Shown piece after piece: positions 6,001 to 64,000 of a stretch of DNA of 64,000 nucleotides. The notes under the pieces were generated by a model. It ran no database searches. It saw nothing but the letters and a program-made list of their open reading frames with translations, and was not told the origin of the DNA. Source of the stretch: an uncultured Planctomycetia bacterium (GTDB lineage: Bacteria; Omnitrophota; Gorgyraeia; CAYWPX01); contig CAYWPX010000003.1 of assembly GCA_964460615.1 (NCBI GenBank), positions 155,028 through 219,027 of the forward strand. The letters run 5' to 3'. A program made the translations under genes and the position numbers. How positions within the stretch are numbered: position 1 is the first letter of the stretch; each line of letters begins with the position of its first letter.

Positions 6001-7080
6001 GAGCTAAGGCCGCTCGCTGTCAATGGGTTTCTGGAACTAATGGCAGGAATCCTCATAGCACCTGTAAACTCAGTTACAAAATTCCCATTATCATCTACTA
6101 ATGCCAGCCTTATATAAGTATCACCGTCAGCCCCTACAAGCCTAACATGATTGGATCCGGCAGCGGCAGTATTCCCTTGAATAATTCTAGTATTTTTGAA
6201 TGTTCTATCTTTAGAAGTATTTACTGCAAGCCTGTAACCTGCCGGCAGGTTGTTAAATACCAACTTATTTCCGTCAACTATGTGAGCGCCGATATTAGCC
6301 GCTGTAAGACCGGTTGCCCCAAGCGGATTAAGTACCTGCACATTGTGTAAAGCAACTGCTTTAGAGGCATTGCCTCTAACGAATTGGTTCTTTACTCCTG
6401 TAAGAGCTCTTACTCTTATCGCCTTTGCATTAGTAATAGGAATAAAGAATTTAACGGTGCCATTAACAGGATGATCTATATAATATCTCTTGACATATCT
6501 TTCGCTGGAAAATACCCTGTTTGCTGCATCATTTTCAGTTTCACCAGATAATTTTCTGATAGGTGCAGTGGAAATTTCTATCTCATAACCTGTCGCACCC
6601 GGAACCGATGCAAATGTGAAGAGATTCGTTCCGGTCGTATTCCTGAAAGTACTGGCATTCGGTGGATTAGCCGCTGCGGGAGCTTCAAAACCAAGCCTTG
6701 TCAAATTGCCGGAAGTATAAGCATTACCGGTCTCTCTTTTCTTAATAGAACCGTTAGCCCCTCTTTCCAGCACTCTTATAGTATAAATTCTAACATATTT
6801 ATGCCCAGCGCTGCTTTTAAGATAAACTGAAGTGTTGTTTGCGCCTCTTACTGAATACCCGACGGTCTTACTGTTCGGGAAGGTCGGATCGGATGAGGTC
6901 TGAACATAATATTCTATATCGCCGGTTGTATTAGCCGGTTTGGCCCATGACAACTTATAGTCATTTGTTATCTTGAATGTGGTAGCAACGGGTGGTTGCG
7001 TAGCACGTCTTGGGACCAGGTTTGACAGGTTCAATGCCTCTGCAGGAGTGGTTATCGCAGGATTACCCAACAATGTCACT
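1..7080 (-). repeat. C-terminal array of at least 12 Ig/FN3-like beta-sandwich modules (continues beyond the window)
   Basis: Recurrent module signature …W…P…(I/V)QTS(S/K)xxxF…Y…LYKSxGH(T/K)Y(V/I)R(V/I)…D(E/A)NG…WSE. Examples: GHTYVRYAIV, KYMRVALV, KYIRVALATD, TYIRLALVDDNG, GHKYVRIYTI, GHTKIRVRTVDENG, GHTKVRIRKIDENG, GHKKLRIRQVDQYG. Confidence 0.55.
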
Positions 7081-10000
7081 CCAAGTAATATCGTTGCGAC
7101 AATTCTCTTATTGGCGATCTTTGAAATTGCCTTCAAAAGGCCTGCTCTTAATCTAGGAATAAATCCGATATTGTCAACGACAGAACCTTCTCCGCCATTG
7201 AGGCCATATGTAAGCATTCCGTCTTCATTCTCAGTAGCAACTACAGAACCAAATTTTTCAAGTAACTCATTAAGCTGATTCTCGGCTTCAACCCTGCTTA
7301 CCCCGAATTCACTTGCATAAGAATAGATATCGTAAGAAACATCGTTTGCAAGCATATTGCAATAAGCCATATTGATATTAAGAGTTTTTCTTGAGGTAAA
7401 GTTATGATAGTAATAAGTAACACCGTCCTGCGTATCGCTCTTTATGTTGCTATTGTTGAGAACGAGATTTTCTAAAATTGCCTCCAAATCCTCGTCTTCA
7501 GATTCGCCGTATAACTCCCTTACCTTGTCAAGAGTGATGACATCTCCCTCCATCATCCTGTTATAGAGAGTAGCTGAAGTTAATTCTTCAAATGAAATAT
7601 CAGGATCTGTAATAGCGTTGAACCTATATAACAACCTGCCGTCATCAGAACGTGATTTTATGACTTCTCCGGAGAATATATTATAAGCATAACCAAGATC
7701 TCTATTGGCGGTAGAATAGCTGATCTTACCGTCTTCGCCGAAGTGTTCGACAAGAGCATCTCTATATTCCTTGATTGTAATATAAGCACCACCCTTAGAC
7801 TGGAGATATGCCATAAGGAAGTTAAGGCGTTCCATCCTCTTATCAACTTTTTCTGCGCCGGCCAAAGCTGCATCTGAAATTTCGGCGTCAAGAACAAACG
7901 TATCATTAATATATACAAGCACCTCATTTGCCTCGGCTTCGGTCAAGTCACCTCTCATATAAGCGGCCTGGAGCATTGAAGCGACTTCACCCAGCGACAT
8001 TATCTCGTCGTTATCTATCAAATAACTTAAGTTAAGCTTCCATATTTCCTTATCAAGTTTGTCTTCTTCGGCTTCTTCTGCCTCAGCATGGGTCTTTGGT
8101 TCGCCCAGGACCGCTGTATGTTCCATCATCTCGTGAAGTACCTGCCTAAAGAGAGCTTCCCCGGTTAAATAGCTTGTAACAACAATATCGCCTGAATTAA
8201 TGTCTGCTCTATTAAGATTAGCCGCCTCAATATCAGAAACAACGTGGCCGCTCACATAAAGCATTCTTCCGAATTCGCCTTCTTCGTCCAATAACTGCAA
8301 GGCTATGGAAGGCGCCCCGCTGGCATTTGTAACAAGCTTGACTCTACCGGAATCGATAAAGTTCATTGCTTCATTATACTCATCTGTCCCTGAACCAAAG
8401 TAGTTCCTGAATCCTTCTTCTAATGCCGCATATGCGTCAATATCATTAACAGCTTCATCTACAGCTGCTTCAGCTAATGCATCCTGAAGCTCTAAACCAA
8501 CCTCCGGATGCGATGAACCCTTGTTGATCAATTTGTCTGAATCAATTATCTTCTTACCGGACAGCGGATCTATGCCTCTTCTAAGCATGTCTACCCACGC
8601 TGTTGCACCCACATGGGCAAATCTGTTATCTAAAGGATAAAGTTGTCCGTCTTCGCCGACAATAGCTATGATGCCGCCATTATATTCAACGACTTTACTG
8701 AATTGAGAATATAAAGCTGCGCCCTTTTCATCGTCCCCAGTCAAAAACGCCAACATAGCAGCACCTGCTGTTAATTCAGAGTTAAACGACGGACTGCCTT
8801 CGACAACCTTAGACGCATACCCTTCAAGAGTAACTTTACCGTAAGAAACTTTATTAAGGGATATTTTGTCAAGGTATGGGAGAGTATTAAATGTAGCAGG
8901 ATCTATACCTGTAACATCCTTGGTCGCATATAATGCTAAAGGCGCCCAAATATTGTGAGTAGTAGGCTCTTCGCTTGAATAATTCGGATAAATGAACTTT
9001 CCAGTGCCTTCATCAGTTGTACCAACCAAGAAGTTTTCACCTGTCCACATACCGCCCTGAGACACATTCTTGGTCATCCATGTTAAGGCAAGTTTACCGG
9101 CATCGATATACTTCTGGTTACCGATAACTTGTCCCAATTTGATGAGCGCAGCTCCTGCAGTAGCATTATGTTCGGTTGAGGCCCATTCAATAGGGATATA
9201 ATACTTGGTATCATAGTTATCTCCCAGATAATCGGCGTTTGGATATTCAAGTCCGCCCTTTATCGCTCCGTATATAGGACTTGAAGAGTTCACTATCTGG
9301 AACTGTGACACCCATTCGGCTGCTTTTGTAGCTGCATCAAGGTATTTGGCATCATGGGTCTTTTCATATAAGTTAGTTAAGAACATGATATTCCATGAAA
9401 CAGGGCCAACCGCTATATTACCGGCATTAATCTGGCCGTTAACATCATAACCGTCTACCCACCCGCCTCTAAGGTTTATACCTTTTACAACAACGCTTTG
9501 TTTAAACTGTTTTGATATCAGGTTATCTGCAAGTACCTTAGCAGTCGCAAGATCCTGCTGAGTACCGCTTGCAACAAGCGAAATGCCGGTAACACCGACG
9601 TCATACGTCCAGCTGGAACTGTTGTTATACTGCTTGTAGCTCCTTAAAACTCCGTCAGAAGATATCTGGTCTCTTAAGAATGTTTCCATATTGGCTACGG
9701 AAACAACCGCCGGGCCGGTCTTCAAGGCATCCATAAGTTTCGGCCCGCCTACAATACCTCCGATTCCTAAGGTAGCAATGAGTACCGCTACAAACGCTTT
9801 TTTATCTTTTACCCATTTTATAAGCTGGTCTATCCTTGAAACATTAGGAGTAAGTATTTTATCTGTGATCTGAATAGCTTCTTGAACATTAGTATCATCA
9901 ATAGCATCCTGTAGTAACGAAAGTATTCCATCATCACCTCTGGCTAACAATGCCTCTCGTATCTCAGGATAATAAACCCCTTCGGTTTTGGCATATTCAA

Positions 10001-13000
10001 TAACGTCGTATGTCAATTGGTTACTGTCGGTGTCATATAATGTAAGTCCATCAAGTCTTTCGAGCGTCCTTGAATCAAGGCCCTGAGCAGACAAGACTTC
10101 AAGAGCAAATCCCTTTTCATCCTGAGTTAAGGACTTAAAGAGAATATCCGCAAAATTCAAATTGTCTATTTCATCTGTCTTTGTGAGGAAGAACAAGATC
10201 TCTATTTTTGCGTCTATGGATAACTCCGTAAAATCCTGTACCTTGCGTATCGCAAGCATAACCTCGGTAATATCAGCCGGCGGTGCCCTGTTACCAAGAG
10301 CATCCAACTTGACATGCCTTAGCTCTTCTTTTAATTCCATCTTGAGCAGGTCCTTGGAATCAAGTATGTCGTTATCAAGAGTATAGGTCGGGATACCATT
10401 ATCATCATAAGAAACTCTCGCAAGCTTGCTGTTCCAGACAACTATATTGAGGTTAGTACTAAGCGGGATACCCAGTTCTATCGCTGCTTCCTTAAGATTC
10501 TTGGCCATCCTCAGGTTTTCATCATTAGAATCAAATCTGGAGAGGTCGTCACCGCCTAATGTTGTAATCAATCCTTCAAAAGTCCCGTAATATATTATGG
10601 TCGTATTGCCGGGCCTTCTGGATATAGATGAAGTATTTACGCTTGAAGGCGTAACATGGACCGCTCCAAGAGCCGTGAAGGCATCCTTAATATTCTTAAC
10701 TATCTCCTGATAACCGGCTCCTTCTATAGGTATCGTTCCTTCGGGACTATCCGTATAATCGCCCAATCCCATATTCCCCGCCGGATCATCCTTAGTATCG
10801 CCTACACCCATCAGGGTCTGCCATGTGAAGATATTGTGGCCGTCTGAACCGTTTGTAGTAAATAATTTGTTTGTGGCATACCTTGCATCATTGTTATTAA
10901 GATCATCCAATAATTCCTGCAACGCATTCCTATAATCAGGCTTCAGTTTACTTGAATACATCTCAACGCCTCTTATCTGAGTATAAGAAGTCAGGAAGGC
11001 CCTCAAATATGTCATCTGGTCTTCAAGCGTCACTCTTTCGCCGCTCTTATAGGTCACCTCAACAGGATGTGGTAATACCAAGACACCTTTTTGAGCAGTT
11101 ACAAAGTTTATAACATCATTTATCGGCTGACCGTCCCTTATTCCTGATCTTTCGAAAGAAACATAACCCGTCGGGCCGTAATTAGGATCTTCTGGGTTGG
11201 TTGACCTGTTCTTTTTGAAATATTTTGCATTAACTTCTTTATAATTCGAACAACCCAATCTTTCGGGGCCGTATTTCTGGAAAAGAATGAGCGATAACTG
11301 ATAGGAATTGGTCAAGTCGGATATCTTACCTTGTAAATCTTCTTTGGTAAGTTCCAGCCCTTCATACCAATCCGGATGCAGATTCTTCTCGTTAAAGTTA
11401 GAATTAAATTGCATTCTCATCTTTTCAGCCCTATTAACACCGGTACCGAAAGCATTAGGATCAAAATAAATTCCATCCATTGTATTTACCATATTTACTA
11501 CTGGTGAGCTATTAAGGAACGTCTTATATGCATCGGCACTGCCTCTATTAGGGAAATAACCTATCAGATGCTGGCCGCCGGTTATACCTCTGGGGTCATC
11601 AATAAAATCAAATTCAACACCTGTAATAACTTCAATTCCAAGCTTATCCGAAGAAGCGTAGCCGGCAGAAAGAACCTCGCCTGCTCTTAAAGCTTCATAA
11701 TGGCTCCTAAAGGTGTTATGATCAATGATACCTATTGAGCTCAAGCCCTTCATCCATGCTTCGAGCACAGCTCCTGCCGGAGTAAGGTTGCCATCTGAAT
11801 AATAGGTATGGTAATGCATATCAACTCTGCCTTTTAATTCAAAGGTTCGTTTTACCAAATTTTCATTACTCTTTATGGCCTGTAGTGCCTGTAAGCGCCT
11901 TGCAACCCTGGCATCTTCGCTTACTTCATTCGGAAGCTTGTCATTGACCACTACAAATCCGGCTACAACCTTTTCAGCTGCCTTAGCTGAACCGCTGTCA
12001 AGTATGGCTTTCATACCATCGATTATAGTCTTATGCATCGCAGGAGTGGCATAATTGATGGCAGTATTATAAGCTGCTACCGCCTTTTCTATCTGGCCAA
12101 GAGCCATAAAGTTGGAAGCGTCTGCAAGTGCCGTATAAGCATCTTTTCTACCGATATAAGACAGGTTCATGAAGTTGCCATTCTGATCATACATTTCAAC
12201 CCTGTCTTTGTTTATGATAATATAACCGCCTGATATCGCTCCGCCACTAGTAACATAAAAATTATATTTCTCCCCATCAGGTGTCATAACAACAGGGCTT
12301 AATGTATATTCTGAATTGACATCTCCCCTTATAAGCTCAATAAATGTTGCATCAAGAGAGGCCTCGTGCAGAGCGCCAATTTCAGCAACATCAAGATCAA
12401 ACATGGTCCTGATGTCATTCTTTCTCTCACCAATTGCGCCAATAAGGTATGACTCTAATCCACCGTCTCTAAGGACCTGATTAAACATTTCTATAGGATT
12501 CTGTCTCTGGGCGCGGGTCTTTCTGTTCCATCTGCCGGGAACATTTTCAGTGCTCAACTGATCCAACCAATCATTGACCATGCTTAAGCTATGAGACCCT
12601 GTAAGGTTTTTACTACTGGTAAGCTGTTCGGCCAGAGATAAACTTCCATTAATGATCGCGCTGATCTGCTCAGGCTTAATTGCCTGAAGGATCGTTGCCA
12701 AATTGCTCAATTTGTCATCGTCAGTCTTTGCCATTTTGTATGCTTCATTAACAAAAAGCTTCTGATCATGCCTTACAATATTAAATATTTTTTCAAACTG
12801 TACCGAATCAAAATAAGGCAGGAACTCAGAAAAACCACCTGTAGGCCTTGAGAACATCGTGCCGCCAAAGTCAATATGTACTATATCCTGATTGGTACCC
12901 GAATTATCCGAGACATCATTGAAATCCGGGCTATTGAACATCATATTCCAAGGAGTCCTATCAGAATCCCTTAAGAGAGCTGATAGCATCAATGCCCCAT

Positions 13001-16000
13001 ATACCCTTGCATCATCATGATATCTCTCCAAGAGATTCAACCCGCCATCTTCATATCCAGGCAAAAATTCTATGGCCAGCCTCAGTTCTTTCTTGCGCTG
13101 ATATGGCCCGCCTGTTGCGCTCAGATCTCTCTCATACGGTTTGCCTTTAGCATAGTCTTTAACTTTATAACCGTTCTCATCTACCCTGAAACCTTCTACG
13201 GATATATATGCCCCATCCCTGTCATGTATATAGGCATATACCAGAGATGTCTTTGGTACCGGTAAACCCATTAGCGCAAAGAACCTCTGTGTCATATAAT
13301 CGATCAGTATCGTATATTCATTGCCGCCTTTTACTAAATACAATTGACCTGTGTGTTCATCCTTATAGAGATCAATAGGATTGGTTGTCGGCCTTGTAGG
13401 CACCCCAAAGAACTTCTGATAAGAAAGATTCTCAAAGTCTGCCTGGGAAATCAGGTCCTGACCGTTAGCGGCTTCACTGGCAGTCTTATTGGTAATATCA
13501 GAATAATTAGCCGGATCCTCCCTATTAGATTCTAAGTCAGCGCTGATCAATCTGTATACTATAAAGACATCTATAGGTATGCCGTCAATTTCATAATTAC
13601 CAGTTGTATTAAAATAAGACCTGAGAATATCTCTCGGTCCGTTGGAGCGGATCTCTTCTCTTATTCTGATCACGTCATCGTTAATACTATTATTGATAGC
13701 CTGGAGATACACATCAAAACCCTCAGGCCTCATATTAACAAGTGCTTTTGCCGAAGCATTCCTAAGTTTGTCCCTGTCATCATCTGTACCGCTCAAATAG
13801 TCATCACCGTTCAAGGCCAGGTTTACAAGCTCTTTCCTGATATTCTCGGCAACTTCAGCGTCAATCTTAGAACCTTCGCCATAATTAAGAGATCCGATAA
13901 CATCTATCATCTGTATCTCGTTCTCCGAAGGCGCATGATTCGAGATATTTGCCACTAAAGACTCCAGTCTTTCAATACCATAAGACGACCCTATGCTCTT
14001 AAGAGTCCCGGCGGCAGCCTTAACTAGTTCAATGGTATTATCAGCTTCTGAATTTTCTAAAATATTAAGAAGAAGCGTTATTCCTCTTTCTCTTAATTCC
14101 TTGACAGAAGCATTATAGCTGGGGTTTGAAGGATCTATCAAAGGCGAATTATCCTTGATCCTACCAAGCATATCCTTAAGCACATGTCCTGCAATGGTAG
14201 TTCTGATCTGCATTCTTATATTAATGTAGTAATCGCTGTCGTATGGGAAATAAGCTTTGGCTATGTTACCATCTACATCTTCAATGATATCAAGCAGTCT
14301 CTGCATCATCGTTGGATTATTCTCAACTCTTATCGGATTTATCGCCTCGGTAATAGCCGGCCAACCCCAGAATTCTTTATCATCACCTAAGGATTTAATA
14401 CATCTATTGAACGCCATTTCCCATATACGGATATTTTTGGATTCAAGCATTTCAGTGATAATTTCTTTGGCGTTTTTCCACAGGTCTTCATCAGTGAATT
14501 TATTCTTCAGTACTCCAAATATTAATTCAAGCGCCTGCTGCCTGTAATAATTTGTCCCAAAGGTATCTTCCATCTCAAGGTTAAAATACATCCACCTGAG
14601 GTTCCACAATGTTTCTATTCTCTTGGGAAGCTTGTCGGGTGACAGATCTCTCAGTTCATTTCTGGCGGCAGTGATATATGCGCTAGCATAATTCTGAGTA
14701 GAACTACCTAACCCAACATTTTCTTCCCATTCAGAGGTTCTTAGCCCCGGCGCCATAGCCTGATAAAGTGCAAGTTTTTCATATCTAGTCAAACTCGGAT
14801 GGTTAGCAATAATAGCATCCAGCTTATCAAACCTTCCGGACCCTGAGAAATTGGAACCAGCCAAGTCAAGCCATGATGCTGGATCAGAGCTGATCAATGT
14901 TAGCGCCTCTGACATGGCATTTCTTGCCTCATTGGAGTAGGTCGCGGCGGTAAGAACCGTCAAGCTAAATAGATGCTCCCACCCATATTTCAGCCCGCTA
15001 TTATTGTATATCTCTACGAGGTATTGTTTCCTTGCAAGTTGCGTTGAGCTTGGGTTGTTTGTCACATATGTATTATATGCCTGTACAAGTGGAGTAAGCT
15101 TGTCTAATGAAATCTGATGTTTGGCTTTTACAACTGCTTTTCTTGCAGCGTCTGATACTGGTTTTGTTGCTAATACGGTTTCGATCTTTAGCATCAGTTT
15201 ATTCTGGAGGGCGACGTTGGAGGTAGAAAGAATGCTATAAACTAGATTTGGCAATTCTGAAGCCAATTTAGCAGCTAAAGCCGCGAGATCAGCACCATCA
15301 GTTTTTATTAAAGTAAGCTCTGGATCAAATAAAGAATCAATAGCCAATTCCAACCTTCCTTCATCTGTTTCTGAATGCAGGCTGGCCGCTATTTGACCAA
15401 AAAGTATATGCGATTGTTCATTATCAGCACTCAACGCCTGTTTAATAGCTTCAGGATAATTGCCTATGGCAATATGCCCATAATTAACCTGGGCTTTTAT
15501 TTCATCTATTAGATCCTTGTATTTTTCGCTTTCTGCAAAATCACCTACATTTATCGCCAGCATAATATCCAAAACATCAAATATTGGCGTCAGTATACTA
15601 AGCTTCTGAGTTATATCATTTACAGAGCTAAATGTCAGGAGATCATTGAGATTGGTTATATTAAGCCCTGCTGCTATGCCGGCAACTTCAGGATTAAATG
15701 AGGTTGTCATATTATTTCTGCCAATAAGGAGATTTCTAATAAAGTTTGTGGCAGACTGGAAGTATGTATTAGCATTTGCGCCCAATTCACCGGAAATATA
15801 TTTAGCAACTGCTTCATCAATGCTGAATTCAACTCCATATTCGGTTTCAAAGGCAGCTTTAAATGAATTGAAGTTAGTTAAACCCATAAGCCCGGACAAT
15901 TCTGCTTCAGTAAGCTTATTATTGACTTTGGAGTATAGTAAATGCCCCACAATATCATGCCACTGTCCGACGTACCTGTCAGTTGAAGCGCTGCTCATAT

Positions 16001-19000
16001 TGATCAGTTTCGCAACTTCTGAGAAGAGGTTCAGGAAACCTATATCAGTAGTAACCATTTCTTTGTCTTCTATAACAGGGTTACCATTATCATCAATTCC
16101 AGTCTGTATACTCACTGTTTCGACTTTAAAATCTGACCTATTGGCATTTACTATATCCATAAATGCGGATATAGACTCCTCAGAAACTCCCAAACTTCTC
16201 AATCTGCTTTCTATTGACGTTGTAAGAGTTGTGCTGAAATAATTGTGTACCGGCGGCTTGCCGTATGGAACCCTGGTGGCCGGATCAAGGCCTAAGGTAT
16301 CCATCATAGCATCCCTTAGATCAACAGCAAGGTTGTATTTTTCAAAAGAGTTATTGAGAACTGTATGCTTCTGTATCTCTTTTGTAAATATCTGCCAGAT
16401 ACCCTTATCCTGATACCTCACCATTTCTATAATAGCGCTTCTTATACCGTTTAATTTGGGTAATCCTACTGCATCATAAAGATCAAGGATCTTCTTGGGA
16501 TTATCTCTAAAGTTGCCATTTGCTTCGGCAAGCTCGGTAAGTTTCTTGAATTTCTCCTCAACGCTTGGGGTAGTAGTCTGAGCGCTCCCCCATGTATTAT
16601 ATTGGGCAGCAACATTATTTATATCCTTATTGGTTGAGATATTAGTAATTGCCCCCACTCCTGCTGAAATAAGCGGGCCGACAATATATGCCAGGGCATA
16701 TAACGAACCGACTACCCACGCGCCCCAGACAACTGGGTTAGTAGCATCAGTAGTATACTTGAAGATATTTCCGAACAAACCAGTTAATAGTATTACAAAA
16801 GGAGCATGACCAATAGTGCGAATAAATGTCCCGTATATACCTTTTGAATCAAGGAACTGCGATAATCCCAGGAACGGCTTCAACCAAATACTTGCTTTAT
16901 TGTATTCTTCCTGCTGTTTTGCCGTAAGATCATGAGGTACGTTGTTCCAGAAAGAAATAAGCGGGCTAAGTAAATACGCTCCTGATACTGCTATACTAAA
17001 CGGTGACAAGCTCAAAGCAGCCCAAGTCAATAAAGCACCACCAATTATTGTTGGTATCAACTCAAGATTAGCAAGGTCAGATCTCAACTGAAGCCAAGGA
17101 GTTAAAGTTGTGGTATTTCCCTTTTCATCAGTTCTAGTGTGAGTATAGCCCGGGATCAATAAAGTAATCATATCCCATGGAATTTGTAACAGATATTTAA
17201 TGGGAAGCAACTGGCTAATCTTAGCATCATCTTCTACAGAAGATGTAGATACGAATTTTGCCTTCTCGCCAAGTAATTTAATAAATGTCTCCCACATCGC
17301 CACTATTGCAAGTGCCGGATAGAATAAAGTTGAGTAGGATACAAAATTGAGCATCTTCTTAGGTGTCTTTGCCATATTAACAAAGAAAATAATAAGAGGC
17401 GACATCAACGTCAACACTGTGATAACGAGGAATTGCGGCCCCACAACACGGCCTGCCTCAAGGGGAACATATGAATCATATAATAACGCCTGTATCAGAT
17501 AGAATACGAATACGAAGTTAAGAGGCAAATTGGATACAGGCACAGTAACATCCAGTTTCTCTATGGTAGTCATCTGTGAACTCCAGATCTTACCTCTCAT
17601 GGCGTTCTTAAAGACGCCGAATAAGAACCCTGCTTCACCTGCAAGTATGCCTTTCTGGAGTAACGACATATCTCCCAGTATATTCGATACATAGTTCCAT
17701 ATCTGGCCAAAGTAACCACCTACGCTGGTAACGGTATTATGTTCCACTCCGCCGCCGCCCGTAAACAAACTCAATAAACCGAATGTCGCAGCAAAAGCTC
17801 CCAATGCCCATAAGGCATCGGTGGCTTTCTTTGTTCCGAGGAATATATAATCCCTGAAGAATTCTACTGTACCGCCGGACCATTTTTTGTGCCTTACATA
17901 GAATTGTGTGAAGTTCTCAGGGAAACCTTCCATGGCGGATACACCTCTGGCGAATACACCGTAGTTACCGTGTTTTTTCATAAACCTCGCCTGCAGAGAG
18001 AACGCCAAGTCTTCGGAAACTATTTCTGGCCATCCCTGTCCGGACCTGCCGTCATAGGAACTCCATCTTACATCTCTCCATACGCTTCTTCTGTAGAGAA
18101 CTCCATGGCCGAGAAGCATTACGAATCCGCCTTTATTTCTCGGATGCTGGTACTGGTTCCAGTGGTGGTCAACGCCCGTGCCTACCTCATCGCTGAATTT
18201 TGTCTGGATCGTAGGATCGAATACGTGATTCGACTGTACAAACGCAACCTCATCATCATAGAAGTACGGCAGCATCTCCTCAACGTAATTCTCTGAGAAT
18301 ATTTCATCCTTATCGGTTAGAAGAAGGAAGTCATCAGCATCTGTTGTTTCAGCCTGCAGTGACAGGTTCATTTGCCCTGCTTTTGACCCGCCCTCAACAT
18401 CGGATATTATTATTTCAACATCCGGATATTTTGCTCTTAAATATTCAACCGTATCAAGTAAATATTGATAACGGATCCTCTTCTTTTCATCACTAAGTTT
18501 CTTGTTGGCAAGTATACTGCTGGAAATAATTACTCTATAGTTGCCATGGTGTCTAAACGACTGATTAACAACTGATTCAAGGGCCTTTAAATTGCCTCCA
18601 TCTTTACCGGGTTCACCTATACCGCTTGACGTCGGATACAACGCAGTAACGGTCTTCCCTCTAAAATCGCTATAATTCTTTAGCGGCATATCACCCTTAT
18701 CAAAATATGACATACCTTCCACAACCCAGTTGAAAGCACCATATAACCAGAATATGCCCCAGAACGCGAATATGTTGATCAGATTGAGCTTGATCCAAGG
18801 ATCCTGTTCAGATATAAGTTTTAGTTCAGGTATAATGGTCATCGCCGCAGCGGATAATGATAATCCGATGATAGTGCCCCAGTTCCTCCAGCTCTTACGG
18901 GATTTTTCACTGGAGTTTTTGTTTTCGCCGGCTTTAATGAATTTGGATATAAATGTGAATAAGGCTCCGAGGCCGGGTATTATTTCCATATTTAACTGGC

Positions 19001-22000
19001 TTGAAGATTCCTGGGCTGTTTCAGCCAATGCCTGTTTAAGCCTCGCTATTATGCCCCTTGCTTCTTCTTTTGTAGCCTCATCAGCTGTAGCCAGATTACC
19101 TGAATCGAGCTCTCTCTCAAGATCGTCGATCATTTTCTGTGAGTCTAGCGCACCGGTATTTTCATCCGTCAAGGTTGTACCTTCTTCATTGGCTAGTTTA
19201 TTTAGGAACTTATCAGAAAGCTCTTTATAGACCTGGGCAGCTTTTGTTTTCACATCATCAGTTATACCCAGGTTATGAGCATCAAAAGCCCATCTCTGCA
19301 GAGTCGATAAAGCCGGGACAAGGAATAATTCAGAAGTAAAGTCAAGGTTTCTCAATGCTTCCATTAACGCTATTTCATAAGCAACATTTTCTTCGGTTGC
19401 TATTTCATCATAGCAATATTCGTAAATACCCGACAACTCTACTACAAGAACATCAACAGCTTTCTCTGAACCCATCTCTGCTAGTTTTTCAACATAGTGA
19501 TTTCTCAGTTCAGCCAGCTCAGGCCTTTCAGCGGCCGTTGGGTAATTGGCAATTACTATTCCGATATTTTCTATAAGCTTACCAAGGGCAATAACTGCAT
19601 CTCCCGAATCATTCTGGCCTGCATTGACTAAGAAGGTCAGTATAACTTCCCTCAGTTCTATATCGGACTTCGACCCTTCGATCCTGTTACCCATGTATTC
19701 CAAGGCATCGCTATTGAAGGCTATATTGTCAAGGGCTTCAAGTATATTGCTCTTTTGTATATTAGTGGTAGCGGCTTTGTAATAAGCAAAAGATTTTTCC
19801 AATATCAAGATCATAAGCTGTAAATGCTTCCCGCTATCCTGGGATTCATCATAAGCCTGAGCTCTTAGTACAGCTTCATTTAAAGCGTCTTTTGCCGCCT
19901 CTACTATCAAAGGTGAAGAACTATTCAGTCCATAAATGGACAATAAATCGCTTACGATGTTAGTAGTGTTCATTGTAGCGCCTGTTACGCCCAGTCTAGC
20001 CCTCGAGAGAACTTCTTTGTAAATATTTAGACCGCTCAGAGCCTTATTTGGATCGGTGCTTCTCACTCTTGCAAAGGCCTCTACTGAGATCCATTTGTCA
20101 AATTCGGCTCCAAAATCAACACCACTATTAACTGCAGCAATAATTGTATCGATCTTATTTATCATATCTGATTCGGCTGAACCCAATATTCCTCTTGCGT
20201 ATGCTATAACAAGCTCGTCTTTCTGTTCCTGCGTCAAAACATTCACATTTGGCCTTAAATTAATAATATTTAAGGCTGTTGACACATCAGTTTTAGAGAC
20301 AACCTGTATCAGGATACCGCCAATGGAAGTATTAGAGACCTTCTGTATCGTAACGCCAAGTTTAGCGGCGTTATATTCAAAAGCCTTTATCCAGAAATCT
20401 TCATTTTCGAGTGTTGGGCTGATATCATGACCGGGCCTAAAATGTATGAGCCCGCCGGCTTTTGTGATCCTGAGCGCTTCGCTTATAAAATTATCAATTG
20501 ACATCATATCAGGAGCTTCATCTTCATAATCAACAATAGAGTCTATCAATGCCAATTTATCAACCGTTGAATCACCAATACTAAGCCTGCCTTTGGTAGC
20601 ATCACCCATTGTGAACTGGGCATTCAAAGGAACTCCATTAGAAGGCAAATTCCTACTTGTAAGGCTATTCAGGAAGTCTTTAAGCTTAAGGCCCTTTAAT
20701 GTAAACGCCCTTTCAGTCTGAGGTGAATTGAGATATCTTATTAGCTTTCTCATAAGATTAAGGACTATCGGGGACTTAACAAAACCGATTACCGTGACCC
20801 CGTCCATTCTCCCGGCTGTAAGAACATCATTGCCGTCTTTTGATAATGATACGTAAAGATCTCCGGCAGTTAATGAAAGAGGGTTCAATATATCACCGGC
20901 AGAATATGATGTAGCAGACGGTTCTGACTGATCAACGACGAGCTCTTTAGCCGGTTCTCCTGTTACTATAATACCGACATTATCTATAAGGTCTTTATAT
21001 GAATTATGAGTGGATATATCAAGACCATTATAGGACTTATTCTTAAGGTAAGATTCTGCAGCGATAAACGCAATAGGATTGGTTACTGCAACGGATACAT
21101 TCTTGATCTTACCGTTATATGCTACCTCGCTGATCCACTTCATAACCGCAAGATACACATTGATATCCTCATCGGTTGAAGTGATCGGGGAAGTCGGGCC
21201 GAAGGATGAGATGTTCATATTGGAACCACTCATTGAGTATGATATCTCGCCTTTCACTACTCCATTGACAACTATGTCATAAACATTTATACCTTTTTCA
21301 ACAAGCAGTATCTGGTCAAGATCTGACTCAACAACATTTTCTATTGCAACGACTATATTGGCATCACCCTTAAGTACCACACCTTTGCCGCTTGCTATCT
21401 GAGCGTCGATCTTGGCCTTAACCTGGTTATCAGAGAGATTATAGGATATCCATGCCTGGGTAGCTTCATCAAACATCTGGATATTTTTAAGGAATCTCGA
21501 ATAAATAGCTAAGGTCGCTGAATCCAAAGCTGCAGGAAGATGGAGCTTCTTACCTTCGCTTCTTGCTATAGTAACTATCTTATTTAATTCAGTTACGAGA
21601 TCCCCGCCTATCTTATTAAGTTTGAATACCTGGACTTCATCTACCTTAGAAACATATCTTACATCAGCGTTCACAGCATCAAATGACGCCGAGTTAAGGA
21701 AGTCAGCCATATCGTTATCGCTGGCATCTTCCAAGACCATAGGTGTAGCAGTATTCTTTATAGCGTTAAATTCCGCTAGTGCAACCTGGGTTGAAGGGAA
21801 TCTTTCATTAAATGCGTTGCGCATCAAAGAAATTGCCTGCAGATTACTGAATGACGCCGCAAACTGATCGCCATCAAGACTTGGGTTACCGGCCAGATCC
21901 TTTACGGCTACCAGCGCTTCAACATCTATGATGACTACATTACCATTTTCGTCCACTCCGTAGTTATCCGCGAATCTTGTTATGTCAAGATCTACATAAC

Positions 22001-25000
22001 CGGCTGCCCATAAAGCAGTCATAAGCCTTACGACATTTTCAAGGAGCGCTTTAGCGCCTTCAGGGTCACCGTTATTTAAAAGCTCATTTGTTTTTTCATT
22101 GAGCGTTGTCACTTTATTCTGTACAAGCGCGTGGGTAATCGTTTGGGTGTGCATAACATTGGCTTCGTCTAGATAAGTAATATTCAGGTTTTCCAATGCC
22201 GTATAAGGAGCCGCTATTCCTCCTAAATATGCCTTCAAGGTCTGATATTTCTGCCAAGCGCTTGGGTCTGAAGTCATATCTTTGATTACAAAATTACTGC
22301 CATCCTTGGAATAAACAGGGTTTGTTGCCCCTGAACCCACGAGATGTAAAGGTTCGAACATATCAGTCATAGAATCAAGGAACGCTTTTCTAGCAGTATC
22401 AGTTTCAAACATTTTTACATAGTTGGCTTTGGCTTTGTCAGGATCTTTTTCAAAGTTTGCCTTGAATGACTCTCCATCAATCGCCTCAAGTGAACCTTTA
22501 ATAACCGCCAAGATATCGCCTTTTACCTTTTGGTCTAAAAGGCCGCTATTAACCATAGGAGTAAGGAGTAGTCCATCGATATAAGTTTCGGAATCCTTGT
22601 GGCTGAATCTATCCATTTCAACCGCGTCCATCTCGGTACCTTCTGCATTGAAATCATACATATGATAATCATAGCCTTTGACATCGCCTGATTCAGTCAC
22701 TCCATAATTAAGCATTCTCTTGCCGTCAAGGTCAATAATGCCCCTCTGCCACATCTTGATCTGGACATCACAGTAGCTGTCAAAAATTCTCTTTAATTCA
22801 TCATACTTTTCCTGGATAAGCTTATTCTTCAATTCCTGGTCATAAGATTCATTGTTCTTGATAGCCATAACTGCCTGGGCGATCAACTTGACTTTATCCT
22901 GTATGATCGTAAGGCGTTCCTGTGCCCTTATTTTGGTAAATGTTCTGACAACCTTTGAGCCATTGTCATTTTCAATGACAGGTATACCGGCTTCATCTTC
23001 TATATCAATGGTTCTTGCAAATATATCGCCAAGGGCTTCTTCAGTGTCTCTAAGGTGCTTTGTATCTAATCCCAAAGGATCACTATCTTCACTTACAACT
23101 TTGACTACATACTTTTCGCCTGCGATCTCAAAGACCTCGGCTTCAGCGCCGCTAGCCAGGCTTATGATCTCCCTACCGCTTTCTCTTGTGATAAATTCTT
23201 TATACTTAGCATCCATTGACACCTTTAACGAGTCAGGATCTATACCCATTTCACTAAGCTTATTTCTTAATCCCTGGTCCACGGCGCCAGCTGAAAGCTT
23301 ACCGCTCAGGTAGCCAAGAACTATGGATTTGGATTCACTCTGATATAGATCAAAGAAATTAACAACATACGGCCATGCTTGCTCCCATGCCCCTGATCCG
23401 ATCGGGCCTATAGTAGTAACACATATATCCTGCATCAACTTTAACGCATTTTCATATGACAGGCCGACAAAATCAGCTATCCGATCTTTATAGGCGGCTA
23501 TTGATTTGTTGATTTTATTCATAACGGCCTTATCGGCATTAGTAGGCTCGCCTAACAAATATTCATATGAACTTCTAAAATTGAAATCAGCATCGCCGGT
23601 CGGATAAAGGTTCACCACAAATGCTCCGCCGGTTATGCTTAATGTCCCGTCTTCAAGGACCCTTGTGATTATGTCATCCTTATCTACCTGAATATTTGTC
23701 AATATATATATAACAGACCTGTAGTATCCTCTTGCCATATCCTGATTGCCTTTAAATTCCGCAATCCTTGCAAGTGTCAGAAGTGCCAGAGCTTCGATCC
23801 TATTAAGATGGTTTTTCTGTGCCTGGAATGCCACATTTATTGCCACCATCTTTGACTTCTCGATCTCAGCCGAATCATTCCATCCAAGGTTTAGCAATGC
23901 ATTAGTAATGGCGAGATACCTTTCTATATCTGTGCTGTCAAGGCCGCCTTTCATCCAGGTAATATTATCCGGAGCAAAGAAAAGCCTTGCGCTCTTAAGG
24001 CCTTCTATATCTTTATTTCTGAGTGCTAACTGCGCATCTCTAAGCTTCAGAGAATAATACCCGCCGGCTATCTGGGCTGAAGATATCAGACCTCTTACAG
24101 CATCATTTGTCAGGTCTTTTATACCCGGGTACGCATCCGTAAATCTGACAAATGTGATCAACTGATCTATTATTTCATCATCAACCTGTTTTTTACTAAC
24201 GGCACTAAAGGCAATATTGTAATAAGCAGCTGATGTTGTTTCCTTGATCATATCAAGAAGTATTGATCTTTCATTATCAGATAAACTCACCAAATATTTG
24301 AGATCACTTATCCTGCACATGATCTCGCTCACGGCAGGATTGAATCCGGTTGTATTCAGGTGTTCTGCTTCGTGTACGAGGATCATCTTAAGGAATGCAA
24401 CCTTCTGTTCCTTTGTATAAAGTGTATTTGTAATCAGATTGATATTTATATCAATACTGGCGTCATATCCTATGCTATGGTTTGCAAAACCCAGGAAGTC
24501 AACATTTTCATAGAACCTTATTTCATCAAACATAGAAAGGTTAAATTGGCTCCCGAGCTGGCTTACCGCTTCGCTTAATAACTCACTTATTAAGCTATGA
24601 GTCGGGTCAAATGCCAGTACGCGCTGATTGATATCGTGGGTTGCCACAGCTAAGACTACCTGAGGTTTATCGGTATTTGGCGTATCTATCTCAATGCTGA
24701 AGGCCTCATTGGCAGTCACAAGAGAGAAATCGGGTATAATAGCGCCGGCATTCCTTGCTATAGCATAGTTAACCGCTTCAATAAGATATGTAGTATCAGA
24801 ATTTAGGATCAGGTTTGCATTGCCCAATGCCGCATCATGGCCCGCAAGCGGCATACCTATCGAGGCCAATAATTTAACTCTGTCCCTTACAGAATCTCTT
24901 ACACTGTTTAAGAGAGATTCTGTAATATCCGTAGCGCTCCCTGTCAATTCATCGATCGCCAATGTCAAGATATCCATTGCATCAAGCGCTGTCTGATGAT

Positions 25001-28000
25001 TATCGGGGTCTTTGGCTGCTATGATCTTTGCCACATTAAGAGCCTCATCAGCTAAGATCGTCTTTCCGTCGGCGATAGCTTTTGTCCTTATATAATTTGC
25101 AAAGGCAAGAGAATCGGTATCATTAAACACCAGGTTGGCAAGGCCTGTTTTATCACCCTTTGCTATTATTTGGATATCTGACAGCTTTGTACCTTCCGCT
25201 GCTTCAGTATAGTAGAGGTCGTCGAGATACTGAAGTGATTCGTTTATATTCTTTAAAAGAGGCCAGAAATTAACATGAGCAAAATTACTGTCATAGGCAA
25301 AGAGAACCATTGCCATTCCATAGTCGCTCAGGTTGTATTCGGCCTGTATCTGAACGAGGTCATTTACAGAAGCAAACCTGTTATTCTTTGTTTCTAGGGC
25401 CTTAATAGCGTTATTCACTCTTACTATCATGCCAAGACTTGCAATAGAAACGTTATTAGATATGAACTCGGCATTCATCAGTTCACCGTTTGCGCCATTC
25501 CCGTCCCTTAACTTCTTTATGTCTGCAATTTCTGAAGGCGTGAAAGAAAGATTAAGTATCTGATAAACCATTGTCTCCGGCAATCCTGTATCCTGAGCTA
25601 TCTTGGCTATGTCTAATGGATTAACAAGTTTAAATCCTGTTATAAGTTTTTCAACGGCGTTAGCTGCGGCAACAAGCTGAGTATTACTGGATCCCTTAAA
25701 TATTCCCAAAGATAATTTAGCAGAATCAATTAATTGTTTTCTCTTCGATTCAAGTTCGTTGATCTTGGATTCTATTTCATTGACTACGCTCTCTTCCTGG
25801 TTAGCTTTCCAGTTATTGAGATATAACCTCACCATATCGCTGGATAGCATATCTGCAAATTTGATTTCACCCTGTTTATCAGGATCGCTTATTATGCTGA
25901 GTAAAATCTGCCTTATCTGAGCATCTACGCTTCTTAACTCATTTTCAGATGCCGCAACAGGATTATTTACATTTGCTGCCAGATCAGTAATATCCAGGAC
26001 AATACTATTATCCATAGCGGATAGATTGGCTTCCGCCTGTATAAGCGCGTCATAATTGGCCACAGGGTCCATGAGGAACATTCTGGCAAACGCGGTATTT
26101 ATCTCCGCTTTTCTGGTGATATTAAGCCTTGTAGATATTTCGGTGAGCGAGAATACCTCATTTTCCGGATCACTAATATAATCAACATCGAAAGTAATGG
26201 TGTGGCTCTTTACATATTCGCTCAGATTCGCCTGGGCTTCTTCAAATTCTGCTTTAGCTTCATCCATTCTTACCTTATGGACTTCTTCGGCCTCGCCGTC
26301 TAGTTCTCTAAATGCGGCTACTAAATTTGACTGGGCAACGCTAACTGCGGCCCTAAGCTGGTCTATCTGGTACTGCCTTGTGACAAGCCTCTGCACCATT
26401 GAACTTGCCTGCATATCCTGGGTCTTGCCGGCTATAAGTGCTAAGACCTGGTATTGCGGGTTAGAGGATTTTATTATATTTTTAATATTTGTAATATTTC
26501 TTAGGTTAGCCGCTACATCACCACCGTCCCATGAAAGAACTCCGGCAAACCCTATAGCCGCTTCACCTATCATAAGGATGGCATTAACTTCATTATCTCC
26601 GAAAGTATCAAGCGATATTGCGCTCGCATCGATAAGAGCACCGATAAGATCCACTGCTTTCTTATCATCGTCGCCTGCATTTGGTATAAGGGCATCTATA
26701 ACATTAGGATCTGAGTTTATCTTATTCCTTAAGCTCATAACCGCTTTTATGAACTTCTTTGCTCCGTCAGTAACATTCTTAAGGCCGGTAGCGGGATCAG
26801 TGGTTGTTAATCCTCTTGCGTCAAGCTGTGATCTGATGGCGCTCTTTGCCTCTTCGCTAATGCCTTCCATGCTGTCAATAGCTTCATCAACTGTCTCGGT
26901 GGCAGAAATCTCAACCTTTTTCTCTGTGGACATAGGTGCCACTTTTGGAAGCATGCTTTCTGTAATACTGGCATTTATTGATTCGAGGCATTCTGATAAA
27001 CTACCCGCTAAAGCGATCGGTGTTACAGAGCTATCCGAGGTAAGGGCAAGATTTATATCTGTGGTAGAAACAGCCATGGCTTCTGCTGAAATACTGCTTC
27101 CGACAGCAGTATTGGCAATGGCTTTAAATTCATCCGAATTTGTGATAGCATTCAGGAAGTTATCGGCTTTTTCCTTAGCCGCTTTGAGGCCATCAAGGCC
27201 TGTCTGGGCATTTCCTAAGCCGATATTTGTATCAACACCGGACTGATTCTGGAAGTCACTTATGGCCTTTTCGAGGAATGAATATTCAGCTTCTGTAGAA
27301 GCAGTAGCCCTGAGGCCTTCTAAGAAATGGACTAACGATTCATCTATAGCATCTGTAAGGTGCCTGTATAATAAATTTTGTCTTTCCGTTTGTTCGTTTG
27401 CATCAATAAGAGCCATAAACTCATCTTTTGTCACTTCATTGGCAAACCCTGTCGGCGGCGCCCTTTCAGCGTCAATATGGTCAATAACTAGTGAGTGCAA
27501 AAGCGCGGCATTGGCGGCTCCATTTGAAGTCACATCATATGTAAACCTTAACTGCCCTCCGGCAAGGTCCGCAGCTACATCATCAAGGGAGATCCTGCCT
27601 TCCCTGAATGCCTGGGCATCTTCGGCGGTATAAGCATATACGAACTTTCCGCCAAGCCTTACACCCCTATCTCTATTGAGCAATTGTTCTATATCGGTAG
27701 CCTTTGAGAATTTATCTGTTATTGCATGTACTTCTACATTACCGTTAAATACAACATCTATACCTCTTGTTGCGCCAAGTGTGAACCAGAATCCGACATT
27801 ATCGCCCGGGCGGACATCCATATATTTCTTTACATCCGGGTCCTCGGCTGTTGGATTGGCTTTTTCGAAATCAATCCTGTTATGTTCGCCAAGATTAAGC
27901 CTGCCATCAACAATGTCACTGGCAGTAACCCTGTACCAGTCTTCATGCTGGCCTTTCACTATAAACACATCTCTCTTTGAAGCATCTGTCGCAGTTAACA

Positions 28001-42266: not shown

Positions 42267-42269
42267 CTA
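42267..42269 (-). other. Single in-frame TAG inside a YD-repeat (…ITTYNIYGDM-TAG-SVQDKNGRKTYYKNFRDSKGDLIKRYEK…)
   Basis: Verified by reverse-complementing 42181-42281. The same frame and repeat register continue on both sides. The next in-frame ATG is 166 codons downstream (41769-41771). Confidence 0.9.
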
Positions 42270-62745: not shown

Positions 62746-64000
62746 TTATTTTGCAATTTTTGCCCTCCAAGCGATCCATCCATTGGTTGTATATGTTGAG
62801 GCATATAAATGACCCTTAAAGATACCAAGGCTTTCAGATATACCCCTATTAAACATTGTTGTCCAATTTACGCCATCAGGTGATGAATACATATAATTTC
62901 CATTATATGCTGTCAGATACATCCTACCCATATATACCTTTACATCGCAGACATACGGACTTGAATACATACCTGTAAAACAAAGGGACCATGTTACCCC
63001 ATCCTGGGATCTGTACGCTCTCGTAGCTCCAAACGACTCTGAAACAAACGCATAAATATAACCGCCAAATACCGCCATATGAGAAATATTGCGGATACTT
63101 GAATTGCCAAATCCACCGGATTCTACCATATTCCATGTTGTCCCGTTATCAGTCCTCCAGATCTGTCCGCCCGATGTCTTTCTCTCAAAGTACCCGTTAT
63201 TATATGTCCCGACGTAGAGCCTCTCTTTGAATACCACCATTGAATCAACGCTCATATTTGCGTACTCTCTCTGGATACCGTTTACAGTATTGTTAGGGTC
63301 TTTTCCGAATGCCGCCGGCGCAACATTAAGCCAGCTTGCTTCATATAAGGACAGGATCTCAGCTTGCGTTAAAACGCGGTCATATATTATAAATTCGTCG
63401 AGACTGCCGTAAAATCCCTGTATGTTTGTAAGTACCGGTGTTGCAAGTGCAGTACCAATTACAAGAGAGTTAAGATTATTAAAGTTAGGTTTAGTTACTG
63501 TCGATGTCTCTCCGGCTTTTGTGCCATTTACATATAAGGTGGCTATACTAGTTGATCCGGTTGTATCATAAGTGTAAGTCACTAAAGACCACTTGCCGGT
63601 CTGGATATTAGAAGCGGTAATTTGGCTTCCGGTTACATTATTGTAGCATTTTAAGGAAGAGCCTGAACCGTTGTATTCCATTTTTATAAAGCCGGAGGTT
63701 CCTGTGAGATTGAATACAACAGATGTATCGCTTGCCTGAGATCCGCTTGGCGCCAGCCACATCGATATACTACCCTTATCTTCCCTGTAGTCGCCGGTAC
63801 AGGCGATATTGGTATACTTTGGATAAGAGGAATTATTATAATAGGAGCTATTCTGGAAACTGAAGCCACCGTTATACATACCTATTACACAGAAACCGTT
63901 CTGATGATTATGAACGACACCGTTATAATTATTACCGGAGTAATCATTTGCGTCGCTATTCAAAGGATAATACGCTACCATATTTACATTTGTAATATTG
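62746..64000 (-). CDS. LamG (concanavalin-A-like) plus BNR/Asp-box beta-propeller protein, C-terminal part. The frame stays open to the window end, so the true start lies beyond 64000.
   Basis: ORF track gives 411 aa from the first ATG at 63979-63981; the upstream codons NITNVN are still open. The N-terminal part, AYYPLNSDANDYSGNNYNGVV...WSLVTYTYD...LYVNG, follows a LamG pattern. The C-terminal part has repeated SxDxGxTW motifs (WRTDNGTTW, SQDGVTWS, SPDGVNWT). Stop TAA at 62746-62748. Confidence 0.75.
   Translation of the reverse strand, partial: NITNVNMVAYYPLNSDANDYSGNNYNGVVHNHQNGFCVIGMYNGGFSFQNSSYYNNSSYPKYTNIACTGDYREDKGSISMWLAPSGSQASDTSVVFNLTGTSGFIKMEYNGSGSSLKCYNNVTGSQITASNIQTGKWSLVTYTYDTTGSTSIATLYVNGTKAGETSTVTKPNFNNLNSLVIGTALATPVLTNIQGFYGSLDEFIIYDRVLTQAEILSLYEASWLNVAPAAFGKDPNNTVNGIQREYANMSVDSMVVFKERLYVGTYNNGYFERKTSGGQIWRTDNGTTWNMVESGGFGNSSIRNISHMAVFGGYIYAFVSESFGATRAYRSQDGVTWSLCFTGMYSSPYVCDVKVYMGRMYLTAYNGNYMYSSPDGVNWTTMFNRGISESLGIFKGHLYASTYTTNGWIAWRAKIAK
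62749..63330 (-). repeat. BNR/Asp-box repeats (beta-propeller blades) of the upstream partial gene
   Basis: WRTDNGTTW, RSQDGVTWS, SSPDGVNWT spaced by about 50-60 aa. Confidence 0.55.
63340..63981 (-). other. LamG-like domain of the upstream partial gene
   Basis: AYYPLNSDANDYSGNNYNGVVHNHQNGF…SISMWLAP…WSLVTYTYD…LYVNGTKAGE…LDEFIIYDRVLT closely parallels LamG 1 of the giant protein (AFYKFDGNANDMTGNNYNGTIYGSP…IDEVRIYNKALT). Confidence 0.55.

Follow-up and report, generated by a model that had tools for sequence, protein, structure and literature searches.

The minus strand of a 64,000-nucleotide stretch of contig CAYWPX010000003.1, from an uncultured Omnitrophota bacterium (assembly GCA_964460615.1; the whole stretch is called the window below), encodes a complete membrane synthase-translocase of the BcsA type, a member of glycosyltransferase family 2 (GT2), that is fused in frame into a giant protein. 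A six-frame scan reveals that positions 3-42266 are a single stop-free frame of 14,088 codons, which leaves the window at its left end, and the synthase module lies within this open reading frame (ORF; Table 1). A preliminary description of the DNA, made from the letters alone, had placed a GT2 synthase module in the same frame at 16600-18950; the module is real, with its limits now set at 16632-18989. Coordinates are window positions, all features are on the minus strand unless stated, codon numbers are those of the 14,088-codon frame, and residue 1 in the module numbering is codon 7750; the motif coordinates were checked by translation. What appears new here, judged from sequence comparison, is a BcsA-type module from a divergent sub-clade of an uncharacterised family residing inside a giant ORF, its relatives being normally stand-alone proteins.

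All three GT2 models of Pfam that match the module exceed their gathering scores, namely PF13632 (58.1 bits, cut-off 27, E=1.3e-15), PF13641 (42.7 bits, cut-off 27, E=8.7e-11) and PF00535 (24.9 bits, cut-off 23.3, E=2.2e-5), so that membership of GT2 follows both from significant profile matches and from a GT-A fold bearing a DxD motif. When a profile of the family was compared with the PDB, BcsA chains ranked first (E~1e-17), with the motif pairs DaDe/DADH, SEDLA/TEDAE and rhkKW/QRGRW; the pairing of the gating loops, AvFlvTad/RFAVTAK, is co-linear but comes from a sub-threshold second domain of the hidden Markov model (HMM). A single-sequence phmmer search of the module against the PDB gave noise only. 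The AlphaFold2 (AF2) model of the module has a predicted template modelling score of 0.72, with a predicted local distance difference test score (pLDDT) of 80-97 in the core, and its top PDB matches in Foldseek are BcsA, hyaluronan synthase (HAS) and CesA. BcsA is the best structural match by a clear margin, with 459 residues aligned and the membrane part included, and the values for other structures are 25.3 for PcManGT, 22.3 for HAS, 22.3 for Escherichia coli BcsA, 21.5 for CesA, 21.5 for Cgs, 20.0 for CslF6 and 14.5 for chitin synthases. The module thus has the arrangement of a BcsA-type enzyme, a GT-A domain set between transmembrane (TM) helices with a membrane part that superimposes on that of BcsA. 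The preliminary description had likened it to BcsA, chitin synthase or HAS alike; the first likeness is borne out by profile and structure, and the other two are weighed below. The three checks suggested there, by GT2 profiles, by hydrophobic helices and by structural comparison with BcsA, all turned out in its favour.

The module represents an entire stand-alone protein, and not a mere catalytic domain, because its alignment with stand-alone homologues (alignment A1) spans the family from the N-terminal TM pair through the last TM pair, at 25-33% identity. Stand-alone members are 500-620 amino acids (aa) long and combine PF13632, PF13506, PF13641 and PF00535. Among 5.8 billion proteins a word-seeded search found 38 matches, and HMMER, run exhaustively on 1.84 billion cluster representatives, found 315 at E<=1e-3; all of the former, and the best 150 of the latter, which are those listed, are membrane GT2 proteins of at most 735 aa encoded by separate genes. 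A profile built from 139 stand-alone homologues, with the query excluded, scores 299 bits in total on the module and covers positions 8-517 of its 577 in order, one segment pairing codons 7786-8142 with positions 8-329 (E=5e-69) and the other codons 8219-8442 with positions 324-517 (E=5e-26). It matches once only in the 20,818 aa searched, and on this profile evidence chance resemblance is excluded. The closest full-length relatives are haloarchaeal and carry the exact RHKKW motif: P0002 clusters with Halomarina pelagica WP_254544108.1, and a neighbour of P0001 matches PF28084, a family that takes its name from a protein of Haloferax volcanii. Each of three bacterial homologues (P0027, P0022 and P0007) directly follows a translationally coupled gene whose conserved product carries a signal peptide and has 277-286 aa or, in one genome (L002), 547 aa with N-terminal tetratricopeptide (TPR) repeats. 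These partner proteins are mutually similar (E 1e-45 to 1e-54), and their profile finds no Pfam or PDB match. By analogy the two-gene layout resembles synthase-dependent exopolysaccharide secretion, with its TPR/porin protein and inner-membrane synthase, and the partner is a candidate for the export component of a two-gene exopolysaccharide system that is as yet uncharacterised; an outer-membrane porin is one guess at its nature, prompted by the signal peptide and by the fusion to TPR repeats.

The catalytic motifs named in the preliminary description, DxD, TED-like and RHKKW, are all found where it put them, as DKDE, SED (inside GQGWPEIVSEDLAFSL) and RHKKW, aligned to DADH, TED and QRGRW of BcsA. 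The module keeps 43 of the 58 columns that are at least 80% conserved among the 139 homologues, including KAG, DxD, FVQ, GFVMLLGHG, PEIVSED, R..KW..G..E, EKLD and the Phe and Thr of the gating loop. Among the matches listed, its only close relative is P0042, on a 1,920-bp JGI metagenome contig (3300045952, Ga0491434_0092200; locus L001) that is open at both ends. The two are 48% identical overall, and they are almost identical across FLLLTDKDE, GFVMLLGH, the SED segment, VRHxKWSGGTVEF, EKLDVTVPVxNLPLNF, SYSTLFYPALA and KAKFxST. Between its SED region and its RHxKW helix L001 carries ~150 extra aa; it also has a frameshift from frame +3 to +1 near position 1027 and keeps one Asp at the DD position (VIVAD). 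Scans of genome contigs and of metagenome contigs found no relative, and missed L001 as well. Because the near-identity is confined to the catalytic motifs in spite of only 48% identity overall, the comparison suggests that purifying selection has acted on the active site, and on these alignments the module and L001 form a divergent sub-clade, changed in its donor site, within a synthase family that is uncharacterised.

The membrane part was examined by Kyte-Doolittle hydropathy and in the AF2 model, which agree on a cluster of hydrophobic helices flanking the catalytic core: 8 of the 15 peaks at or above 1.5 in the 14,088 aa fall inside the ~790-aa module. The preliminary description had counted two TM helices before the core and at least seven after it; the two N-terminal helices are firm, and the second count is about right, with 6-8 found. 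AF2 adds one doubtful helix (MEIIPGLGALFTFISKFI) at the N-terminal side, and a 16-residue segment without counterpart in stand-alone homologues (MEIIPGLGALFTFISKFIKAG) could in the model be either this doubtful extra TM helix or an interface helix. After the GT-A domain come the interface helix with RHKKW and six TM helices that align with the stand-alone family, together with an amphipathic helix ahead of the gating loop and, in a low-confidence insertion of 77-83 aa, at most two extra TM helices; this insertion holds one strongly and one moderately hydrophobic helix (Kyte-Doolittle 1.71 and 1.19) and is possibly an extra TM hairpin. The Lys/Arg-rich stretch KFIKAGENKNSSEKSRKSWRNW before TM1 would be cytoplasmic by the positive-inside rule. 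Since the number of TM helices appears even, with spans of 2 + (0 or 2) + 2 + 2 + 2, both ends of the module would be cytoplasmic, and a cytoplasmic part of the giant protein could accommodate the module with the topology of the flanks unchanged. The Met-initiated segment MEIIPGLGALFTF, which begins at codon 7760 (window 18989), had been taken for a former independent N-terminus. The end-to-end homology to stand-alone proteins, whose N-termini fall ~20 residues downstream of the Met, fits this idea; the Met itself proves nothing, and no Shine-Dalgarno-like sequence precedes it.

The frame that holds the module continues upstream. Directly before the 14,088-codon frame, and in the same frame, lies a 6,730-aa ORF (42267-62459 with its stop), parted from it by a single TAG. 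A YD/RHS-like repeat runs unbroken across this codon (TTYNIYGDM, the stop, then SVQDKNGRKTYYKNF), with an RHS_repeat Pfam match just upstream, and after the TAG the earliest possible start is a TTG at codon 69 and the earliest ATG is codon 165. Because the repeat continues across the TAG and no start codon lies near downstream, the two ORFs most probably belong, as far as sequence can tell, to a single gene of at least 20,819 codons; the 6,730-aa ORF is probably the N-terminal part of the same giant protein, and the TAG probably stems from a sequencing error or a mutation, or else is read through. Use of TAG as a sense codon is unlikely, since the 20,819 in-frame codons contain this one alone. 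Cysteine is scarce, at ~0.1% of the 14,088 residues of the long frame.

The fusion itself shows no sign of an assembly join and does not appear to be recent, because the synonymous-codon-usage distance of the module lies inside the range of other windows of the ORF and no stop interrupts 42 kb. Its G+C content at third codon positions (GC3) is slightly high, at 0.433 against a mean of 0.383 in other 801-codon ORF windows (standard deviation 0.024, maximum 0.423). The 1,990 aa flanking the module (13557-16556 and 19017-21986) have no homologue at E<=1e-3 among the 5.8 billion proteins; on reading the sequence, the ~1,000 aa on each side give the impression of helical repeats. The lack of a giant protein among the homologues is not evidence of a unique fusion, because the indexed database seems poor in giants: a search with the N-terminal 1,300 aa gave TSP3-repeat proteins only, of at most 2,272 aa, and with none above ~2,300 aa returned this suggests that few or no giant proteins are indexed.

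We estimate at roughly 0.6 the probability that the module is an active, processive synthase. The comparisons above establish the fold, the family, the conservation of the motifs, the homology over the whole length and the fusion in frame; activity and processivity, the topology, the donor, the polymer and any coupling to the rest of the giant protein are inferred. In such a synthase the two N-terminal TM helices would return the chain to the cytoplasm, where the GT-A domain would bind a nucleotide-sugar through DKDE and a divalent cation, with the Asp of SED as the catalytic base. At the entrance to a channel built from the next 6-8 TM helices, the Trp in the RHKKW of the interface helix would hold the acceptor end of the growing glycan, and the KFVST gating loop would close over the donor. 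The polymer would then be pushed through the module's own channel, one sugar per step, to the outer face of the cytoplasmic membrane, while both flanks of the giant protein remained cytoplasmic and the module doubled as a multi-pass anchor. Coupling of polysaccharide synthesis and export to the giant protein, which the preliminary description had drawn from the arrangement, may be read in this way, with the reservation that the donor-nucleotide side has diverged. More doubtful is the further proposal that a functional synthase-translocon within a surface or membrane protein of >20,000 aa extrudes a glycan beside its own extracytoplasmic lectin-like, RHS-like and possibly epimerase/lyase-like domains, so that one self-contained polypeptide would produce a glycan for use as a coat, tether or adhesive. 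If this were true, the altered donor pocket, with neither canonical DD nor NDF, would point to an unusual activated sugar, and exopolysaccharide synthesis would be organised without the usual multi-protein operon.

Several observations count against activity of this kind. Two of the BcsA motifs are not canonical: RHKKW keeps the Trp and the helix of QxxRW, with Q replaced by R and R by K, and KFVSTS keeps F589 and T592, both invariant in A1, with V and K each replaced by S; the RH(K/M)KW variant, for its part, holds throughout the stand-alone family. The 15 departures from the conserved columns are concentrated in the donor-nucleotide half of the GT-A domain, where the family T-C-N-D-F after beta-1 reads T-S-S-G-I with an 8-aa insertion (D133 to G), R-R before KAG reads I-S and N216 is Q. 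The position of the family DDS is ambiguous, since it aligns with SSS in A1 and in the L001 alignment and with D177-E178 in a 140-sequence MAFFT alignment and in HMMER; the AF2 model has a strand at 160-166 and its next helix from 177, and loss of the canonical first Asp, with S-D-E as a helix N-cap, is therefore the reading that the model favours. The model is of low confidence in the three insertions (~80, ~35 and ~30 aa). An NCBIfam scan of the module gave no match, homologues of the module reach only 20-63 bits against the NCBIfam models of CelA, PgaC, MdoH and HpnI (cut-offs 310-1131) and 36-63 bits against the cellulose synthase model TIGR03030 (cut-off 699), and by Pfam and partner-homologue searches no BcsB-like protein, porin or PilZ partner was found in the giant protein. 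Because no curated NCBIfam family claims the query and its homologues fall far below the cut-offs, the polymer cannot be named, and by these scores the module has a BcsA-like architecture and yet is no orthologue of any characterised synthase.

The same divergence would fit a degenerate pseudo-synthase, a protein of BcsA-type descent that has lost polymerisation and now anchors the giant protein by its many membrane passes, or else binds or conducts a glycan for it. Such decay would accommodate the loss of nucleotide-side residues that are 90-99% conserved in the stand-alone family (D133 to G, probably DD to SS, RR to IS), the poorly modelled insertions, the silence of NCBIfam and a surrounding 2,000 aa that is orphan and evolving beyond recognition. 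It sits poorly, however, with the retention of the DxD, the catalytic ED, the KW, the gating-loop Phe and Thr and 43 of 58 conserved columns, and with the near-identity of the catalytic motifs in L001, which would be needless for a mere anchor; L001 also retains one Asp at the DD position. We regard loss of activity as unlikely. Quite unlikely, too, is a non-processive membrane GT2 that makes no polymer and transfers one sugar to a lipid, polyprenyl-phosphate or protein acceptor, in the manner of PcManGT, enzymes of the GtrB/DPMS type or ceramide glucosyltransferase. Although PcManGT appears among the structural matches, that of BcsA is better by a clear margin and extends over the membrane part, a gating-loop-like FxxT and the acceptor Trp are present, there are at least 8 TM helices rather than 4, and the bacterial homologues each have a secreted partner, in one case with TPR repeats, an arrangement known from exopolysaccharide secretion systems.

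An artefact, in which a separate synthase gene of ~2.4 kb only seems fused through mis-assembly, a chimeric join or sequencing errors that erased a start and a stop, is suggested by the equivalence of the module to an entire stand-alone protein that begins near a Met, by a GC3 slightly above that of every other 801-codon window, and by the in-frame TAG, which indicates that sequence or gene is not flawless. We consider it very improbable given that no stop occurs in 14,088 codons, ~7,760 of them before the module and ~5,540 after it, that the codon-usage distance is unremarkable, that no Shine-Dalgarno-like sequence precedes the Met, and that both flanks are equally orphan and helical-repeat-like in the same frame. 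The least probable of these alternatives, and one that we would hardly entertain, is that the module is specifically a chitin synthase or a class I HAS: it has no Chitin_synth match in Pfam, chitin synthases are not its closest structural neighbours, and the curated family cut-offs of OpgH/MdoH, PgaC and HAS are not reached. An active BcsA-type synthase remains the reading that we prefer.

Table 1. Positions of the giant ORF, the synthase module and its parts, and other recognisable regions (residues in module numbering)
Feature	Window position	Strand	Codons or residues	Basis and remarks
Upstream ORF, 6,730 aa, same frame	42270..62459	-		N-terminal signal anchor, TSP3 repeat, FKBP_C, Peptidase_C39, 3x Laminin_G_3, RHS repeat (Pfam)
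Single in-frame TAG	42267..42269	-		Parts the 6,730-aa ORF from the 14,088-codon frame
Giant ORF containing the synthase module	3..42266	-	14,088 codons	Six-frame scan; C-terminus beyond left window end
DUF7402		-	codons 592-738	Pfam
Weak ResIII/DEAD-like P-loop NTPase	29052-29474	-	codons 4265-4405	20 bits
BcsA-type membrane GT2 synthase module	16632..18989	-	codons 7760-8545, ~786 aa	End-to-end homology to stand-alone 500-620-aa synthases
MEIIPGLGALFTFISKFIKAG, 16-residue hydrophobic/amphipathic helix	18927..18989	-	AF2 helix 15-31	Kyte-Doolittle maximum 1.34; pLDDT 40-54; no counterpart in A1
TM1 + TM2	18702..18881	-	residues ~47-66, ~78-98	Kyte-Doolittle, AF2; aligned with the family's two N-terminal TM helices (A1)
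Cytosolic GT-A catalytic domain	17925..18662	-	residues 120-365	PF13632, PF13641, PF00535; pLDDT 80-97
Beta-2 strand and loop, NYRVIISSSILANKKLSDEKKR	18477..18542	-		Near-invariant family DDS (uracil-binding Asp) aligned to SSS in A1; D-E 10 residues on
DKDE, DxD metal/diphosphate motif	18303..18314	-		Aligned to BcsA D246-A-D248-H; D236, D238 invariant in A1
SED, equivalent of BcsA T341-E342-D343 (catalytic base)	18009..18017	-		Invariant in A1
Interface helix with RHKKW		-	residues 370-393	AF2
RHKKW, equivalent of BcsA Q379-R-G-R-W383 (acceptor-binding Trp)	17880..17894	-		A1, profile alignment, AF2 helix 370-393
Insertion, 77-83 aa, absent from stand-alone homologues	17592..17840	-	residues ~394-476	Gap in A1 and between HMM domains; pLDDT <50
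C-terminal membrane part	16632..17567	-		EKLD-TM, TM, amphipathic helix, gating loop, TM-TM, final TM-TM; two insertions of ~35 and ~30 aa
EKLD-TM; TM; amphipathic helix; KAKFVSTS		-	residues 485-515; 528-549; 553-582; 586-593	
KAKFVSTS, counterpart of BcsA gating loop FxVTxK (RFAVTAK)	17241..17264	-		Family consensus AxFxVTAD; weak HMM domain 2 aligned to BcsA 481-514
Second insertion with beta-hairpin, then TM helices; third insertion, then TM helices		-	TM 654-670, 673-692; TM 739-756, 762-796	
PHP phosphoesterase domain	11532-11822	-	codons 10149-10245	E=2e-7
Borderline D-glucuronyl C5-epimerase C-terminus/pectate-lyase-like stretch	9042..9401	-	codons ~10956-11075	PF06662 23.7 bits (cut-off 23.3); PF09492 E=0.021
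Loci of bacterial stand-alone homologues with a coupled partner gene	L002 4361-6004; L003 4167-5000; L004 4141-5001 (positions in these loci, not in the window)			

Outside the module, Pfam recognises few domains in the 14,088-codon frame, and a search of this frame by sequence against the PDB, in three chunks of 4,088-5,000 aa, gave no match. The epimerase/lyase-like stretch lies ~2,500 aa downstream of the module, directly after a TM helix at 9741-9797 (codons 10824-10842), and might be a polysaccharide-modifying domain in the same polypeptide, to go by its borderline scores; a single-sequence AF2 model of the region has a pLDDT of 37 and is unusable. Despite the length of the giant protein, self-BLAST found no internal repeats at E<=1e-5, and self-BLAST and the family profile over 20,818 aa found no second copy of the synthase. 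The giant gene is preceded by a 286-nt AT-rich intergenic region, upstream of which a separate 411-aa gene (62746-63981, minus strand) also encodes a Laminin_G_3 protein (E=3e-21). On the plus strand, ORFs of 150-349 aa such as 26197-27246 run antisense to the giant gene and are very probably not genes. No tRNA lies within the window.

Bacterial proteins in the giant range, 10,000-150,000 aa, largely defy annotation, and their many TM segments are usually taken as mere anchors. Here a TM cluster of such a protein is a whole integral-membrane enzyme of the BcsA type with its own channel, and multi-pass membrane machines can thus be recruited as 'domains' of giant ORFs. The module offers a concrete function for part of the giant protein and a topological landmark, in that the GT-A domain must face the cytoplasm. 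If it is active, one polypeptide would link polymer synthesis and export to domains of the adhesion or degradation type, which bears on how cell surfaces are built or attacked.

Compared with BcsA of Rhodobacter sphaeroides (PDB 4p00, 4hg6 and 5ej1) and of E. coli (9fmv and 9b8v), the module shares the architecture at a sequence identity of only 13-15%. It has two N-terminal TM helices where BcsA has four, it contains three insertions and is embedded in a giant ORF, no Pfam match to PilZ or BcsB occurs anywhere in the ORF, QxxRW and FxVTxK of BcsA are replaced by RHKKW and KFVSTS, and the first Asp motif is probably lost. With the stand-alone family, exemplified by Halomarina pelagica WP_254544108.1 and the three bacterial members, it has in common, in an end-to-end homology of 28-40% identity, all the TM helices, EKLD, GFVMLLGHG, PEIVSEDLAF, RH(K/M)KW and the F.VT loop; unlike that family it lies in a giant ORF, has lost NDF, RR and probably DDS, has gained the three insertions and reads GWPEIV, with W in place of the family F. 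The bacterial members have their coupled upstream signal-peptide partner, whereas no homologue of this partner was found in the giant protein. Another membrane synthase within a long polypeptide is the cyclic beta-1,2-glucan synthase Cgs (PDB 8rf9 and 8rfe), of ~2,800 aa, which has defined partner domains that process its own product; the giant polypeptide is 5-7 times as long, and a product-processing domain is not securely identified in it.

The closest parallels to the polypeptide as a whole are found within its own phylum. GT5 (starch synthase) and GT1 enzymes are soluble folds. They are the glycosyltransferase types named for the giant multi-domain proteins of Omnitrophota in two preprints (bioRxiv 10.1101/2023.11.21.568195, bioRxiv 10.64898/2026.06.07.730766), whose main texts do not mention GT2, PF13632, PF13641, PF00535 or cellulose synthase; supplementary tables might list GT2. 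For these giants, the 'Archaeovorins' and those of the dockerin/TSP3 type, the literature describes numerous TM helices together with C39 peptidases and TSP3/dockerin-type regions, and it reports glycosyl transferases and, in general terms, 'polysaccharide biosynthesis enzymes' (bioRxiv 10.1101/2023.11.21.568195, bioRxiv 10.64898/2026.06.07.730766, PMC12419801). The Archaeovorin type is marked by Omnitrophota origin, a length of >30,000 aa, SecA_DEAD, many TM helices and glycosyltransferase, methyltransferase, glycoside hydrolase and peptidase domains. The SecA_DEAD model has no match in the giant ORF, which shows only the weak ResIII/DEAD-like match. The ORF, at least 14,088 aa long (at least 20,819 across the TAG, as limited by the window), has TM helices, a glycosyltransferase domain and a C39 peptidase, and it resembles the Omnitrophota giants in its great length, its scattered TM helices, the C39 peptidase in the N-terminal region, its TSP3 and lectin-like domains, its glycosyltransferase content and a sequence that is for the most part unannotatable.

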